Origin: Candidatus Nanopelagicales bacterium
GTDB taxonomy: Bacteria; Actinomycetota; Actinomycetes; JBEVHX01
Direction of reading: 5' to 3'
Assembly (NCBI GenBank): GCA_040510995.1
Contig: JBEVHX010000122.1
Location: 1 to 37,892, forward strand
DNA length: 37,892 bases
Positions 12,052 through 16,402 of this stretch are shown piece by piece. The notes below the pieces were generated by a model. It was given only the letters and a program-made list of their open reading frames with translations, was not told the DNA's origin and ran no database searches. Made by a program: the position numbers and the translations under genes. The stretch's first letter is position 1, and each line of letters begins with the position of its first letter.

Positions 12052-14874
12052 TCAAACGCGCGGCTTCTCGCGAAGCTCGTAGGTCTCGATCACGTCATCC
12101 ACCTTGATGTCGTTGTACGAGCCGAGGCCGATGCCGCACTCGAAGCCCTCCCGGACCTCGGTCGCGTCGTCCTTGAACCGCTTGAGCGAGTCGATCGTGA
12201 GGTTCTCGGCCACGACGACGCCGTCGCGGACAAGCCGGGCTTTGGAGTTGCGGCGGATCTCACCGGAGCGCACCAGCGACCCGGCGATGTTGCCGAACTT
12301 CGAGGACCGGAAGACCTCGCGGATCTCGGCGGTGCCGAGCTGGACCTCCTCGTACTCGGGCTTGAGCATGCCCTTGAGCGCGGACTCGACGTCGTCGATC
12401 GCCTGGTAGATGACCGAGTAGAAGCGGACGTCGATGCCCTCGTCGACCGCCAGCTCGCCGACCTTGCCTTCGGGACGAACGTTGAAGCCCAGGATGATCG
12501 CGTCCGAGGCGGCAGCGAGCATCACGTCGTTCTTGGTGATCGCGCCGACGCCACGGCCGATGATCCGCAGCGAGACCTCGTCGGAGACCTCGATGTTGAG
12601 CAGCGCGTCCTCGAGGGCCTCGACCGAACCGGACACGTCGCCCTTGAGGATGAGCTTGAGCTCCTGGACCTCGCCCTTCTCCAGCTGCTTGAAGAAATCC
12701 TCGAGGCTGCGCCGACCGCGCTGCTTCGCGAGCTGGGCGTTGCGCTCGCGCGCAGCCCGACGCTCGGCGATCTGTCGAGCCACCCGGTCCTCGGGGACGA
12801 CGAGGACGTTGTCCCCGGCACCCGGGACCGAGGTCAGGCCGAGGACGAGCACCGGACGCGCCGGACCCGCCTCGTCGATCGGCTCGCCGCTGTCGTCGAG
12901 CAACGCTCGAACACGGCCGAACGCATCGCCGGCGACGATCGAGTCTCCGGGACGCAGCGTGCCACGCTGCACGAGGACGGTCGCGACCGGGCCGCGGCCA
13001 CGGTCGAGGTGCGCCTCGATCGCGACACCTTGGGCGTCCTGGTTCGGGTTTGCCCGCAGGTCCAGCGCGGCGTCAGCAGTGAGGAGGACGGCCTCGAGCA
13101 GGGCATCGATGTTCTGCCCCGCCTTGGCCGAGACATCGACGAACATCGTGTCGCCGCCGTACTCCTCGGCCACCAGTCCATACTCGGTGAGCTGACCGCG
13201 CACCTTGGCCGGGTCGGCCCCCTCCTTGTCGATCTTGTTGACCGCGACCACGATCGGCACATCGGCAGCCTGGGCGTGGTTGAGCGCCTCGATGGTCTGC
13301 GGCTTCACGCCGTCGTCCGCCGCTACCACCAGGATCGCGATGTCGGTGACCTGCGCACCGCGAGCACGCATGGCGGTGAACGCCTCGTGACCGGGCGTGT
13401 CGATGAAGGTGACTTTGCGCTCGTCACCTTCGGCGCTCTTGGCTGTGACCTGGTACGCGCCGATGTGCTGCGTGATGCCCCCGGCCTCGCCGCGAACCAC
13501 ATCGGTGTTGCGGATGGCGTCGAGCAGCTTGGTCTTTCCATGGTCGACGTGGCCCATGACCGTAACGACCGGCGGCCGAGCGACGAGATCGGCCTCGTCG
13601 CCCTCATCGCCGCCGAACTCCAGGCTGAACGAGTCGAGCAGCTCGCGGTCTTCGTCCTCGGGGGACACGACCTGGATCTCGAAGTTCAGCTCCGCACCCA
13701 GAACCTGCAGCGTCTCGTCGTTCACAGACTGGGTGGCGGTCACCATCTCGCCCAGGTTGAAAAGGATCTGGACGAGCGATGCCGGGTTGGCACCAATCTT
13801 GTCCGCGAGGTCGGTGAGCGACGCTCCGCGCGAGAGCCGGACGATCTCTCCGTTCCCGCGAGGCGCGAGGACGCCGCCGATCGACGGGGCCTGCATGTTG
13901 TCGAACTCTTGACGACGCTGCTTCTTGGACTTACGACCGCGGGTCGGGCGTCCGCCCGGTCGGCCGAACGCGCCCGCGGTGCCGCTGCCGCGACCACCGA
14001 AGCCGGGACGACCGCCGCCCGGACGGCCTCCGCCGCCGCCGCCGAAGCCGCCCGCGCCGCCCGGCGCGCCGGGACGACCGCCACTGGGCGCGCCGAACCC
14101 ACCGCCGGGGCGACCGGCACCGGGACGACCGGCACCGGCTCCGACGCCGGGACGACCGGGCGCACCTGCCCGACCTGCGCCGGGCGCACCCGGGCCAGCA
14201 GCGCGGCTGACACCAGGTCGGCCCGGCATCATGCCCGGGTTTGGCCGCGGTCCACCTGGACGCGGCGGCATCATGCCCGGGTTTGGCCGCGGACCGCCTG
14301 GGCGCGGAGCGCCGGGGACGCCGCCCACCGGGCGCGGCGCGCCCGGCACACCGGGGACCGCGCCGGGTCGCGGCGCGGGAGCGCGCCCCATGCCGGTAGC
14401 GGCGCCGGAGGTGAACGGGTTATTGCCCGGCCGCGGTCCCTGCGGACGCGGTGCACTCGGGCGCGGCGCCGTCGGACGCGGGGCCGCCGGTGCGCCGCCG
14501 TTCGGCGGAGTGGGCGCGCCGGTCATCGGTGTGGCCGTTGTCCGCGCCGCAGGCTCGGCCGGCACCACCGAGGGCGTCGGCTGGGCCGGTGCCGCGGGCG
14601 CGGCCGGCAGCGGGGTGACGACGGCTTCAACGGGAGGCTGCGCCCCGACCGGAGCCGCGCTGGGAACGGCCTTCTTCGCTGGCTTCGCCGGCGACGCGGC
14701 TTCCTCCGCCGGCGGGGCAGCCGGGAGCGCTTCCTTGAGCTTGCGGACGACTGGTGGCTCGACTGTCGACGAAGCCGACCGGACGAACTCACCCATCTCC
14801 TGGAGCTTGGTCAGGACGACCTTGCTCTCTAGACCGAGCTCCTTCGCGAGCTCGTAGACCCGAACCTTGGCCAT
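12052..14874 (-). CDS. infB: Translation initiation factor IF-2
   Basis: [14 protein letters not shown], Pro/Gly-rich region, [28 protein letters not shown]. Confidence 0.99.
14224..14307. repeat. 42-bp in-frame tandem duplication within infB ([14 protein letters not shown] x2)
   Basis: CGGCATCATGCCCGGGTTTGGCCGCGG... occurs at 14224 and 14266. Confidence 0.85.
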
Positions 14875-14896
14875 GTGTGACTGGCTCTCCTCTTCT

Positions 14897-14968
14897 CGGT
14901 CCGGGCCGGATGCCGCGGACCGTCAGTGCGTGGGCGTGCTCATCGCTGGGTGCTCATCGAGCGCTCAT
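14897..14968 (-). promoter_or_regulatory. infB leader: three ATGA-coupled mini-ORFs (14968-14954 MSAR*, 14957-14940 MSTQR*, 14943-14923 MSTPTH*) followed by hairpin 14922-14897 abutting the SD
   Basis: Minus strand CG-ATGAGCGCTCG-ATGAGCACCCAGCG-ATGAGCACGCCCACGCAC-TGA-CGGTCCG-N12-CGGACCG-AGAAGAGGAG. Confidence 0.75.
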
Positions 14969-15048
14969 CGGTGTCTGACCCCGCTCCCATGTGCTGGACG
15001 GTGGCTGGCGTGTGCTGCGGGCGGCGCAGCGCCGTCGTGCGTTCGTGT

Positions 15049-15345
15049 TCAGGTCCGGGCCGCATACGTCTCGAACCAGGACCGAAGCGCGGTTGCGTCA
15101 AGCGGCCCCGGATACCGCAAGGCCCGTGGGAACGCTCGCCGCCGCTCGGCATGCTCGAGGCAGTCCGGCACGGGATGCACGTACGCACCCCGACCGGGCA
15201 GCCGGCCGCGGTGATCAGGGACCAACGCCCCGTCAACCACAACGACCCGCAGCAGGTCGGACTTGTCCACCCGGATTCTGCACCCCACGCAGGTGCGCTG
15301 TGGGCGCTCCTTCGGGCGTGCGTCATGGCCGGGACGACCGGACAC
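15049..15345 (-). CDS. ylxR: YlxR (DUF448) family RNA-binding protein
   Basis: PQRTCVGCR...LLRVV...RLPGRGAYVHP...RRRAFPRALR; GTG start at 15345 (VSGR) inferred. Confidence 0.92.
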   Translation of the reverse strand: MSGRPGHDARPKERPQRTCVGCRIRVDKSDLLRVVVVDGALVPDHRGRLPGRGAYVHPVPDCLEHAERRRAFPRALRYPGPLDATALRSWFETYAART

Positions 15346-15352
15346 AAAGAGT

Positions 15353-16402
15353 CTACCCCTCGGCCGGGGCTGCCGGCGCCTCGTGCCCTTCGACCGGGGA
15401 CGCGGTCGAGCTGGTCGCGTCGTCCGAGCGGGGATCACCCCCGCCGTCGCCGCGGATGTCGATGCGCCAGCCGGTCAGACGGGCGGCGAGCCGAGCGTTT
15501 TGCCCTTCCCGTCCGATGGCCAGCGACAACTGGTAGTCCGGCACGATCACCCGCGCGGCCTTGGCCGCCAGGTCGACGATCTCGACCGAGTTCACCGACG
15601 CCGGCTGCAGCGCGTGCGCGACGAAGTCGGCGGGGTCGTCGGCGTAGTCGACGATGTCGATCTTCTCGCCGTGCAGCTCGGCCATGATCGCCCGCGCCCG
15701 CGCTCCCATCGGCCCGATGCACGCGCCTTTGGCGTTGATCCCGGACCGGGTGGCCAGGACCGCGATCTTGGTGCGGTGCCCGGCCTCCCGGGCGATGGCC
15801 TTGATCTCGACGGTGCCGTCCGCGATCTCCGGGACCTCGAGCGCAAACAGCTTGCGAACCAGGTTCGGGTGAGAGCGGCTCAGCGTGATCTGCGGGCCGC
15901 GCAGCCCCTTGCGGACCGACACCACATAGCAGCGCAGCCGTTCGCCGTGCTCGTACCGCTCGCCCGGCACCTGCTCCTGCGTGGGCAGCACCGCCTCGAC
16001 CTTGCCGAGGTTCACCAGCACGTCCCGCGGGTTGGAGCCCTGCTGGATCACGCCGGCAACGAGGTCGCCCTCCTTGCCGAGGTACTCACCAAAGGTGATC
16101 TCGTCCTCGGCGTCCCTCAGCCGCTGCAGGATGACCTGCTTGGCGGTGGTCGCGGCTATCCGACCAAACCCTTCCGGCGTGTCGTCGTATTCCCGCAGTA
16201 TGGCTCCGTCGTCGTCGGTCTCCGCCGCCCACACGGTCACGTGGCCGGTGGCCTTGTCGAGCACGACACGGGACCGCTCGACCGCGCCGGGCGTGTGGTG
16301 GTAAGCGACCAGGAGCGCCTGTTCGATCGCCTCGACGACCAGGTCGAAGGAGATCTCCTTCTCGCGGACGAGCCCCCGGAGCGCGCTCATGTCGATATCC
16401 AC
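15353..16402 (-). CDS. nusA: Transcription termination/antitermination factor NusA
   Basis: [56 protein letters not shown]. Confidence 0.98.

Follow-up and report, generated by a model that had tools for sequence, protein, structure and literature searches.

A candidate translational control leader of coupled mini-ORFs and competing RNA helices upstream of infB in Actinomycetes

Organization of the infB leader

The DNA analyzed here (the window, a stretch of 37,892 nucleotides) contains infB, the gene for the essential initiation factor IF2, on its minus strand, with ylxR (PF04296) and then nusA identified by Pfam as its 5' neighbours. The features between ylxR and infB, and those at the infB start, are listed below in the direction of transcription.

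14973..14988, minus strand: purine-rich box GGGAGCGGGGTCAGAC 5' of mini-ORF1, with nearly invariant columns in alignments
14968-14954, minus strand: mini-ORF1, MSAR* (ATG AGC GCT CGA TGA), its stop overlapping the mini-ORF2 start as ATGA
14957-14940, minus strand: mini-ORF2, MSTQR* (ATG AGC ACC CAG CGA TGA), without a Shine-Dalgarno sequence (SD)
14943-14923, minus strand: mini-ORF3, MSTPTH* (ATG AGC ACG CCC ACG CAC TGA), its stop adjoining the hairpin
14922-14897, minus strand: hairpin between the mini-ORF3 stop and the infB SD
14922-14916, minus strand: segment A, the hairpin 5' arm CGGTCCG, from the fold and the conserved A:B pairing
14897..14907, minus strand: segment B, the hairpin 3' arm GGCCCGGACCG, predicted to pair with A or C
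14896-14887, minus strand: infB SD region AGAAGAGGAG, single-stranded in both predicted alternative folds and in the loop of the B:C fold
12052-14874, minus strand: infB ORF (Pfam IF-2, GTP_EFTU, IF2_N)
14874-14872, minus strand: infB start codon ATG, read from the sequence
14866-14857, minus strand: segment C, GGTTCGGGTC, infB codons 3-6 (K V R V), predicted to pair with B

An initial annotation of this DNA had proposed that three ATGA-coupled mini-ORFs in three frames precede infB, and direct reading of the sequence bears this out at the same coordinates. The whole chain (14968-14923, minus strand) contains ORFs of 4, 5, and 6 codons whose three starts occupy the three frames, and the mini-ORF2 stop and mini-ORF3 start also share an ATGA, giving two overlaps of the NUGA/URRUG stop/start type (4 nt or 1 nt). 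The same annotation had assigned an SD-like motif to the first start only. The later two starts do lack one, but the SD of the first, a GGGGT at 14982-14978 (minus strand) separated from ATG1 by 9 nt, is at best weak. In most relatives, the purine-rich box has a CAGGT core ∼11 nt upstream of ATG1. The box may act as a weak SD or, alternatively, as the 5' strand of P0, a small helix formed with the ORF1/ORF2 junction. P0 pairs in 73% of alignment cells, compared with 21-45% for slid partners, and is poorly formed in the window itself.

The mini-ORF chain is well beyond chance. When both strands of the window's 1.76-Mb assembly were scanned for chains of at least three mini-ORFs (up to 8 codons, ATG or GTG starts), 7 distinct loci were found, among which the infB leader is the only all-ATG chain. 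Dinucleotide shuffles of the 170-nt upstream regions contained a chain of at least three ORFs in 0-21% of shuffles per sequence. The base composition predicts 0.26 ATGA per 100-nt window, and at least three are present in 39 of 54 leaders from the same class.

The placement of the stem in the initial annotation, directly after the last stop (gap 0) and ending at AGAAGAGGAG, agrees with the sequence. Its proposed 7 bp (CGGTCCG with CGGACCG, the latter at 14903-14897 on the minus strand, within segment B) are present, but the stem actually extends to 7+3 pairs. The local hairpin fold has a predicted energy of -19.0 kcal/mol (z = -2.83 compared with shuffles), and, folded as a whole, the leader of the window does not exceed shuffles in stability (z = -0.53). 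An intrinsic terminator or attenuator was rejected, as the stem precedes AGAAGAGGAG, there is no U-tract, and a terminator scan was negative at the hairpin. Segment C, being 3' of the hairpin, could not serve as an anti-terminator.

A scan of positions 14780-15480 found no sigma-70-like promoter, using a method that covers Actinomycete promoters poorly. Searches of Rfam returned three chance-level matches far below gathering for positions 14000-16000 of the window (E up to 10) and one unrelated miRNA match below gathering for six other leaders (E up to 1). No description of mini-ORFs or of a switch before infB was found in the open literature searched.

Conservation of the chain and constraint on its reading frames

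A chain of at least three ORFs with overlapping stops and starts lies 5' of infB in 53 of 55 sampled leaders from the same class and in 0 of 20 leaders from other classes of the phylum; the sampled genomes are kin, and these counts overstate the independent support. The initial annotation had mentioned ATGA/GTGA chains before infB in Streptomyces and Mycobacterium, and such chains do occur in Streptomyces as well as other families of this class. A covariance model of the leader (R1) had matches in 140 of 151 genomes of the class, almost always a single match in each. In a sample of the phylum it matched 7 of 12 genomes of the class, and the 2 matches among 139 genomes outside the class were false, both being inside long ORFs and away from infB.

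The leader from the window's own genus (L002) was dropped from the codon, stop-to-stem, ATGA-distance, overlap, opening-cost, and SD counts. Two leaders were left out because one lies at a contig end (L193) and the other stops before the infB start (L194, in which the relay is present by eye). The infB N terminus is at a contig edge in G021 and G031, and infB was not found in the incomplete genomes G032 and G035. Alignment rows L006, L008, L016, and L028 are the unpublished genomes G024, G007, G015, and G029; some tallies include these and other unpublished genomes (among them G031, G035, and G440), and no claim is based on those alone.

The check suggested with the initial annotation, that the overlaps and the stem should be conserved while the peptides drift, passes across the same-class leaders, in which the mini-ORF peptides differ widely. 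Distances between consecutive ATGA motifs, counted in a fixed window and independently of ORF calls, were 11 (45 cases), 14 (34), or 17 (3), and the distance was 2 modulo 3 in 83 of 98 cases. When spacings of 11-19 were allowed in a scan of the collection, each of the 35 infB-linked loci had a spacing of 11 or 14; matches elsewhere were coding Asp-Glu repeats, tandem repeats, and duplicated start regions. The overlaps were ATGA (107), GTGA (9), TAATG (3), TGATG (2), and TTGA (2), and the final stop of the chain was TAG in 23, TAA in 18, and TGA in 12 leaders (n = 53). We read these features as a signature of selection on reading frames and not on a fixed motif.

Conservation of the nucleotides nevertheless exceeds what the ORF architecture needs, and helix P0 explains this only in part. 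At 84 of 118 junctions the final sense codon reads CGA, and at 80 of 118 AGC or AGT occupies the second codon. This strong 8-mer conservation in most families, together with the lack of a canonical SD before ORF1, is what would be expected if the three CGATGAGC units were binding sites for a protein or RNA, with the neighbouring YlxR/RnpM, NusA, or IF2 itself as candidate binders and the ORFs as a by-product. We consider this very improbable, since the spacing varies only in steps of 3, GTG replaces ATG and TAATG replaces ATGA overlaps, and the final stop rotates among all three stop codons. In addition, two families with quite different flanks have lost the 8-mer and keep the three-ORF relay.

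The initiation signals differ along the leader. A canonical SD core precedes the first mini-ORF in 4 of 52 leaders (23 of 52 have an SD-like motif there under relaxed criteria), later mini-ORFs in 3 of 108 cases (positions -16 to -4), and infB in 52 of 52 leaders. Conserved, frame-constrained, coupled mini-ORFs that lack SDs and end at the stem are thus well supported by these comparisons.

The distance from the end of the relay to infB is 21-63 nt across leaders, excluding one in which the relay was mis-called (L154, whose true last stop was set by hand for the pairing, stop-to-stem, and opening-cost analyses). In the window, ORF3 is in frame with infB with no stop between them; read-through of ORF3 into infB was rejected because in most relatives the last stop and the infB start are separated by a distance that 3 does not divide. 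The chain and the hairpin are separable modules. One genome (G020, leader L196) keeps a relay that ends 9 nt before the SD and lacks both the hairpin and the C box, and another (G006, leader L023) keeps the hairpin and C, with one longer uORF ending at the same place.

Alternative helices around the infB start region

The hairpin 3' arm has a second conserved partner. Segments A and C are near-identical in sequence, and the RNAalifold consensus structure of the aligned leaders includes a helix between B and C. This B:C helix (10 bp in the window) pairs in 77.9% of alignment cells, compared with 13-52% for slid partners, and its covariation score exceeds that of all 500 shuffles. The A:B helix is paired in 77% of cells. 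Two-sided changes are present in both conserved helices, as at pair 169/211 of A:B (UA 19, CG 13, UG 5) and pair 205/277 of B:C, which includes the third base of an Arg codon (CG 23, GC 6, UG 3, AU 2, GU 2, UA 1).

Synonymous sites of infB within segment C are also constrained. Codon 4 (Val) is GTC in 34 and GTT in 3 of 37 leaders and never GTG or GTA, whereas other Val codons are GTG or GTA in 23 of 116 cases; codon 5 (Arg) is CGG in 30 of 37. The predicted B:C duplex has a median energy of -19.7 kcal/mol compared with -12.7 kcal/mol for control coding windows, and is the stronger of the two in 40 of 53 leaders. The 13 of 53 leaders without a B:C helix stronger than the controls belong mostly to three families and seem to use other pairings with the SD or start codon; model R1 misses most leaders that lack a strong B:C helix.

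The A:B and B:C helices share segment B and are mutually exclusive, clearly so in about 40 of the 53 leaders. The B:C helix encloses the infB SD and start codon, and in 35 of 53 leaders its stability equals or exceeds that of A:B. Because the 3' arm also pairs with infB codons 3-6, as indicated by covariation and synonymous-site constraint, the stem appears to be one half of a three-segment switch. The pairing with codons 3-6 is new here. The A:B stem itself is predicted not to hide the infB SD. The end of the stem is typically 4-7 nt from it.

The position of the chain relative to these helices is nearly fixed. In 51 of 53 leaders, a gap of 0-6 nt separates the final stop from the first base of the stem that is paired (the gap is 0 nt for the window; L196 has no hairpin in this set). 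Given the size of a ribosome footprint, and judging from the distance between stop and stem, a ribosome ending the leader ORF would overlap one strand of a helix. Opening the infB start region has a median predicted cost of 13.2 kcal/mol with A free and 17.8 kcal/mol with the stop plus 10 nt blocked. This blocking raised the predicted cost by at least 3 kcal/mol in 31 of 53 leaders and lowered it by at least 3 kcal/mol in 2 of 53 (L196 is absent from this set).

These data also bear on another role for the chain, in which the mini-ORFs would only keep ribosomes on the ∼170-nt ylxR-infB spacer as protection against Rho or RNases, with the hairpins being incidental or mRNA-stabilizing. In M. tuberculosis, overlapping stop/start ORFs co-occur less with Rho-dependent termination, according to a preprint (10.1101/2022.06.01.494293), and some relatives of the window have C-rich upstream spacers of the CAGCAC type. 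Such spacers are not general, however, as C exceeds G in 27 of 54 leaders, and the idea of a Rho site was rejected on this ground. An anti-polarity role leaves unexplained both the covariation of B:C with infB codons and the fixed stop-to-stem distance, and we regard it as very improbable.

A proposed two-module switch and its alternatives

We tentatively favour, at a little short of even confidence, the interpretation that these sequences form a class-wide, two-module cis-regulatory leader of infB that exerts homeostatic negative feedback on initiation capacity. The first module would be the relay, three mini-ORFs of 4-6 codons that lack SDs and are linked through their overlapping stops and starts; a ribosome that starts at ORF1 would have to terminate and re-initiate twice to get to the ORF3 stop. 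The second would be the three-segment RNA switch, in which A and C would compete for B. When A is free, the A:B hairpin would form and the infB start region would be easier to open. When a ribosome is at the end of ORF3, A would be inside its mRNA channel and thus covered, B would pair with C, and a GC-rich helix extending into the ribosome-binding window would hold the SD and start codon in its loop, hindering infB initiation. Because throughput of the chain would need three successive initiations and infB only one, repression of IF2 synthesis would grow more steeply than its stimulation as initiation capacity (IF2 with fMet-tRNA) becomes high. The comparisons above establish the architecture and its conservation, the constraint on the frames, and two helices that exclude each other; translation of the mini-ORFs, switching of the fold by a ribosome at the last stop, the sign of the effect, and IF2 as the quantity sensed are inferred.

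The direction of this effect is opposite to that implied in the initial annotation, in which melting of the stem by a ribosome would favour infB expression. That part of the proposal is contradicted by the second conserved partner of the 3' arm, infB codons 3-6, since melting of the 5' arm should then close the infB start region and not open it. The sensitivity to IF2, initiator tRNA, or recycling activity that the same annotation envisaged is likewise conjecture. The sign we propose depends on kinetic assumptions and could be wrong, because the predicted opening cost is large even with A free and because most leaders have a B:C helix no weaker than A:B. Also counting against the model are the rarity of a canonical SD before ORF1, the 13 leaders whose B:C helix does not exceed the controls, the nucleotide conservation beyond the needs of the ORFs, the separability of the two modules, and the unremarkable whole-leader fold.

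With the opposite sign, infB would be translated mainly by ribosomes handed on from the chain. After the ORF3 stop, a subunit or 70S ribosome would stay on the mRNA, the A:B hairpin would bring the stop near the infB SD for re-initiation, and B:C would serve to block independent entry. Several observations fit such a handover: the hairpin bridges stop and SD at short distances (a gap of 0-6 nt before the stem and 4-7 nt after it), the predicted closed state is stable without uORF translation and so calls for an activating route, the relay of G020 stops 9 nt before the SD with no hairpin, and uORF-dependent expression through AUGA has been demonstrated for uPPE2-PPE2 (PMC11260477). On the other hand, a ribosome on A would free B for C and close the start region, and translation would not unwind the sequestering strand B, which is not part of any uORF. 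Moreover, infB has its own strong SD in all 52 leaders analyzed, and handover would mean positive feedback on an abundant essential factor. On balance, we judge this alternative unlikely.

The structural evidence for the negative-feedback switch would equally fit a relay that reports ribosome stalling and not the level of IF2. Ribosomes held short of ORF3 by, for example, translation-targeting antibiotics, shortage of RF2 or peptidyl-tRNA hydrolase, or cold would leave A:B intact, and IF2 synthesis would rise. The first two stops are necessarily UGA, and since most junctions are 4-nt NTGA overlaps, termination at them would depend on RF2. In addition, a WhiB7 ChIP peak is listed 5' of infB in M. 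abscessus in a table of PMC10727445. Set against this are the drifting peptides, with no conserved arrest-peptide sequence, and the lack of a tie to any particular stress, and we think a stress sensor of this kind quite unlikely.

Returning to the negative-feedback switch, a more specific version would make the leader a sensor with ultrasensitive response to initiation capacity, the IF2 homeostat of Actinomycetes. In this model, occupancy of A would vary roughly as the cube of initiation efficiency, whereas SD-driven initiation at infB would be linear. Two of the three fMet-tRNA/IF2-dependent initiations would be SD-less re-initiations in competition with ribosome recycling, and through the A/B/C switch the infB start region would be closed to the extent that A is occupied. 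This version is possible but doubtful.

The proposed switch resembles translational attenuation of ermC and cat, where the position of a ribosome on a short leader ORF picks between mutually exclusive helices, in that one of its exclusive helices involves the start region of the downstream gene. It differs in having three segments and not four, such that the gene should be closed when its leader carries a ribosome, and in having a relay of three mini-ORFs in place of one arrest peptide, without an apparent conserved peptide or inducer. Genes for other translation factors sense their own products: prfB (RF2) through a +1 frameshift at an in-frame UGA and infC (IF3) through an AUU start. If the negative-feedback reading holds, the infB leader would share with them a cis element decoded via the factor's own activity, differing in its proposed use of serial re-initiation and an RNA switch; we know of no self-sensing device for IF2. 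Feedback by NusA on the E. coli metY-nusA-infB operon concerns the same operon neighbourhood (nusA ... infB), but it is mediated by NusA, is transcriptional, and acts at the operon leader and not directly before infB.

Minigenes of the lambda bar type are toxic or tRNA-sequestering elements and not conserved regulators. Minigenes are very short ORFs with an SD of their own whose expression ties up tRNA as peptidyl-tRNA; the mini-ORFs are likewise short (mostly 4-6 codons), but an SD is mostly absent from them. ORFs of this length offer a possible second route from IF2 level to relay throughput. IF1 and IF2 were reportedly found by Karimi et al. in 1998 to promote drop-off of short peptidyl-tRNAs. 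Such drop-off by IF2 would flip the predicted sign, as more IF2 would leave fewer ribosomes at ORF3.

Among described cases of AUGA-type coupling, termination-reinitiation was demonstrated with reporters for uPPE2-PPE2 in M. smegmatis (PMC11260477), and NUGA overlaps were catalogued genome-wide in mycobacteria (10.1101/2022.06.01.494293), a preprint whose main text does not mention infB. The infB mini-ORFs come from the same bacterial class and share with these cases the 4-nt stop/start overlaps and SD-less downstream ORFs. In those cases, the uORF or gene is coupled directly to the next gene, whereas in the infB leader coupling is confined to the mini-ORFs themselves, the last of which stops before the hairpin.

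Based on the above comparisons, the infB leader looks like a switch, so far undescribed, that controls translation of an essential factor, for whose gene no cis-acting self-regulation was found described in the literature searched. Nearly all genomes sampled from a class that includes Streptomyces and families with mycobacterium-like leaders have it before infB, which implies strong selection. If the proposed mechanism is correct, the leader would be a new kind of gauge, reading initiation and re-initiation capacity through serial termination-reinitiation, and a compact natural system in which to study SD-less re-initiation, the fate of ribosomes on ORFs of 4-6 codons, and ribosome-driven RNA switching. 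If the homeostat model is also correct, it would supply the missing counterpart to self-sensing by RF2 (prfB) and IF3 (infC), and would be the first re-initiation cascade in nature to serve as a measuring device. Even with another sign or another signal, a core translation gene would have a class-wide regulatory leader that is missing from present catalogues and merits entry in RNA and uORF annotation resources.

Gene order and distribution of the infB relay

On the minus strand of the window, the order is nusA, ylxR, spacer, infB, DUF503, and rbfA, and the spacer holds a relay of three coupled mini-ORFs (ORF1, ORF2, and ORF3) upstream of infB, the gene of IF2.

Features of the infB region in the window
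15353-16402, minus strand: nusA (gene order with Pfam)
Stop at 15049, minus strand: ylxR, between nusA and infB
174 nt, minus strand: ylxR-infB spacer
14968-14954, minus strand: mini-ORF1, read from the sequence
14957-14940, minus strand: mini-ORF2, read from the sequence
14943-14923, minus strand: mini-ORF3, read from the sequence
14922-14897, minus strand: stem CGGTCCG/CGGACCG, directly after the ORF3 stop and reaching to the purine-rich SD region
ATG at 14874, ORF to 12052, minus strand: infB

Each mini-ORF lies in a different frame, and two ATGA overlaps link all three. The spacer sequence agrees exactly with the initial annotation, which had described these overlaps and a stem reaching from the last stop to the SD. 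In the window's assembly (1.76 Mb, both strands), relays of at least three mini-ORFs (≤8 codons each) occur at 7 distinct loci, among which the infB relay is the sole all-ATG one.

An extra ATG at 14988-14990 (minus strand), in the frame of mini-ORF2, would make a 16-codon ORF that ends at the ORF2 stop; the ATG at 14990 is confined to the window and to L002, from the same genus, and other leaders have CGG there. In the same two leaders, ∼8 extra bases separate the SD from the infB start (14875-14886, minus strand), and their infB ATG lies 12 nt after GGAG; 28 of the 30 compared leaders (L003-L030) have GTG and a shorter spacer. A 135-codon TTG ORF (14940-15347, minus strand) in the ORF2 frame shares the ORF2 stop and crosses ylxR in a different frame; this high-GC ORF is most likely spurious. 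Within ylxR (15243-15262, minus strand), there are two overlapping terminator-like matches with a GC stem and then a T-rich tail (shuffle expectation 0.2).

With the leader and the infB start as the BLAST query, matches were obtained in 33 of 41 genomes (the window's own assembly, one same-genus genome, and 39 other families of the class Actinomycetes). Of the 30 loci retrieved, 26 had a match that continued upstream of infB, roughly as far as the first repeat. In the leader alignment, the three repeats, stop, hairpin, SD, and start are all in register. When infB was located in the BLAST-missed genomes and two weak-match genomes, the relay was present in five (G004, G009, G020, G033, and G038) and a two-ORF version in G013; infB was truncated by a contig end in two and was not found in two others, both incomplete assemblies.

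For sampling independent of the leader, infB was found phylum-wide by its protein N terminus, and upstream regions were taken from 20 same-class and 20 other-class genomes. A mechanical detector (170 nt before infB; ATG, GTG, or TTG starts; ORFs ≤40 codons; 4-nt or 1-nt stop/start overlaps) found relays of at least three ORFs in 53 of 55 same-class leaders versus 0 of 20 from other classes; shuffled upstream regions reached a relay of three in 0-21% of trials per sequence. A covariance model of the leader (R1), built from 29 leaders, had matches in 140 of the 151 genomes drawn from across the class, almost always once per genome. Its 11 misses comprise seven genomes from two families (six and one), in which diverged relays were seen directly, two contig-end cases, and two others. 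In a phylum sample, R1 matched 7 of 12 class genomes and, beyond the class, 2 of 139, both weakly, within long ORFs, and away from infB. Carriers among the collection-scan matches listed are Streptomyces, Streptacidiphilus, Kitasatospora, Yinghuangia, Arthrobacter, Phycicoccus, an Acidothermaceae MAG, and a Mycobacteriales MAG; taxonomy, checked for Phycicoccus and Streptomyces, places both in the class Actinomycetes.

Selection on reading frames and nucleotide motifs

In a fixed interval (-125 to -25 from the infB start, no ORF calls), ATGA occurs at least three times in 39 of 54 leaders (expected, 0.26 per interval), and the distances between successive ATGAs are 11 (45 cases), 14 (34), and 17 (3), with 83 of 98 equal to 2 mod 3. 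A collection scan that permitted spacings of 11-19 yielded at least 35 infB-linked loci, with a spacing always of 11 or 14 among the matches listed; the listed matches elsewhere than infB are coding repeats (12, 15, 18) or tandem repeats. The overlaps are ATGA (107), GTGA (9), TAATG (3), TGATG (2), and TTGA (2). One family uses GTG as the middle start and another has quite unlike overlap flanks, and three coupled ORFs are kept in both. The final relay stop is TAG in 23 leaders, TAA in 18, and TGA in 12. Mini-ORF length is mostly 4-6 codons, the peptides diverge widely, and an SD core precedes 3 of 108 later mini-ORF starts versus 52 of 52 infB starts. Because of this spacing, the variety of overlap types, the rotation of stops, the drift of peptides, and the missing SDs, we consider the mini-ORFs to be conserved, coupled, SD-less ORFs. 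The initial annotation had named retained stop/start overlaps and hairpin with drifting peptides as the pattern to look for across relatives, and the alignment bears this out.

CGA stands directly before the overlap at 84 of 118 junctions, AGC or AGT directly after the start at 80 of 118, and ORF1 has a canonical SD in just 4 of 52 leaders; selection for coupled ORFs alone does not account for the codon bias or for the rarity of this SD. Less probably, the repeats could be protein-binding sites. A small helix of the upstream box with the ORF1/ORF2 junction (P0) has moderate support (73% of cells paired versus 21-45% with slid partners), is poorly formed in the window, and may partly explain the nucleotide conservation.

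In G006 (L023, contig C1), the relay is degenerate, with the third ATG changed to ACG, and a single 29-codon GTG-started uORF reaches the usual stop, followed by a normal hairpin and C box. CAGCAC-like C-rich, G-poor runs lie between ylxR and the relay in L003, L017, L025, and L026; such a spacer is not general, since C exceeds G in 27 of 54 leaders. At three loci of other genomes, not at infB (L065, L083, and L132), 11- or 14-nt tandem duplications of a CGATGAGC-type start region before ordinary genes create short ATGA relays leading into the gene itself, which points to slippage as a possible origin of the infB relay.

The hairpin and an alternative helix with the infB start

The hairpin has a 5' arm (A, 14916-14922) and a 3' arm (B, 14897-14907); folded alone, the window hairpin has 7+3 pairs (-19.0 kcal/mol, z = -2.83). 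RNAalifold on 29 leaders did not return this local hairpin and returned instead a helix of B with infB codons 3-6 (C, 14857-14866). Both helices were tested on a MAFFT alignment of 56 sequences made independently of any structure. For B:C, 77.9% of cells are paired versus 13-52% for slid partners, its covariation score exceeds all 500 shuffles, with two-sided changes at three pairs, and the pair that includes the third position of the Arg codon takes all six standard pair types. For A:B, 77% of cells are paired, and a variable pair reads UA (19), CG (13), or UG (5).

Codon use was tallied in the 37 of 54 leaders whose IF2 starts x-x-K-V-R-V. Val codon 4 is GTC in 34, GTT in 3, and GTG or GTA in none, and GTG or GTA make up 23 of 116 other Val codons of the same stretch; the Arg codon is CGG in 30 of 37, and Lys codon 3 is AAG in 36 of 37 versus 24 of 35 at codon 11.

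The predicted B:C duplex, a 10-bp helix in the window, has a median of -19.7 kcal/mol versus -12.7 for the best control window deeper in infB, and in 40 of 53 leaders the control is the weaker of the two; the median for the local hairpin is -17.9 kcal/mol. The window fold from the ORF3 stop to infB +33 has a predicted energy of -31.9 kcal/mol, or -22.3 when the stop and next 10 nt are held single-stranded. Opening the infB start region (-14 to +16) is predicted to cost a median of 13.2 kcal/mol when A is available and 17.8 when it is blocked, and blocking A raises this cost by at least 3 kcal/mol in 31 of 53 leaders and lowers it by as much in 2 of 53. By sequence comparison, the hairpin is half of a putative switch, as A:B and B:C are conserved and mutually exclusive and B:C would enclose the infB SD and start. 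The interpretation in the initial annotation is supported in part, for the conserved coupled mini-ORFs that end at a stem, and is refined in that the 3' arm of the hairpin also pairs with infB codons 3-6.

Predicted folds of three families have pairings other than B:C. In G020 (L196, contig C27), the relay is kept (three coupled mini-ORFs and a preceding 2-codon ORF), the hairpin and C box are absent, IF2 starts A-K-R-V, and 9 nt separate the last stop from the SD. Two class families (L161-L169 and L159, L160, L165, and L167) are diverged, with a GTG middle start (GTGA overlap) or TAATG overlaps and different hairpin sequences; in their predicted alternative folds, the hairpin region has the SD and start codon as partners, not codons 3-6, and R1 misses most of these leaders.

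A proposed mechanism and its rivals

We propose that ribosomes translate the relay and that one terminating at the end of ORF3 would conceal A. In 51 of 53 leaders, the gap from the last stop to the first paired base is 0-6 nt, so that, at the footprint size of a ribosome, A would sit in the mRNA channel of the terminating ribosome. With A concealed, B would pair with C and infB initiation would be hindered; with no ribosome at the end of ORF3, A:B would form, or could trap the open state. Completing the relay would take three initiations, two of them SD-less and competing with recycling, so its throughput should rise more steeply with initiation capacity than does infB's own initiation, and this steeper response would give negative feedback on IF2. 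The sign of the effect hinges on kinetics, because the predicted stability of B:C equals or exceeds that of A:B in 35 of 53 leaders, and in a rival account the relay hands ribosomes on to infB, with a positive effect. How ribosomes enter ORF1 is not explained by the proposed mechanism. The relay might instead be an anti-polarity device, or a stall or stress sensor; a WhiB7 ChIP peak upstream of infB (MAB_3131c) in Mycobacterium abscessus, listed in a table of PMC10727445, is a hint of promoter or stress input immediately ahead of the gene in that species.

Re-initiation at AUGA is, according to PMC11260477, experimentally established in the class, and the infB relay uses the same kind of termination-reinitiation overlap as described genome-wide in mycobacteria in that paper and in a Term-seq preprint on M. 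tuberculosis (10.1101/2022.06.01.494293), whose main text does not contain infB. No Rfam family matches the leader (window region and six other leaders), and no description of mini-ORFs or a switch before infB was found in the main texts of the open full-text literature; provisionally, the element is not previously described. The leader would work as do leader-ORF controlled RBS switches, and what is distinctive is the serial relay through three frames, the three-segment inverse logic, and infB as the target gene. The negative-feedback, initiation-sensing mechanism in particular is a possibility that we favor only tentatively, and the leader itself is very probably a conserved, selected regulatory leader of infB.
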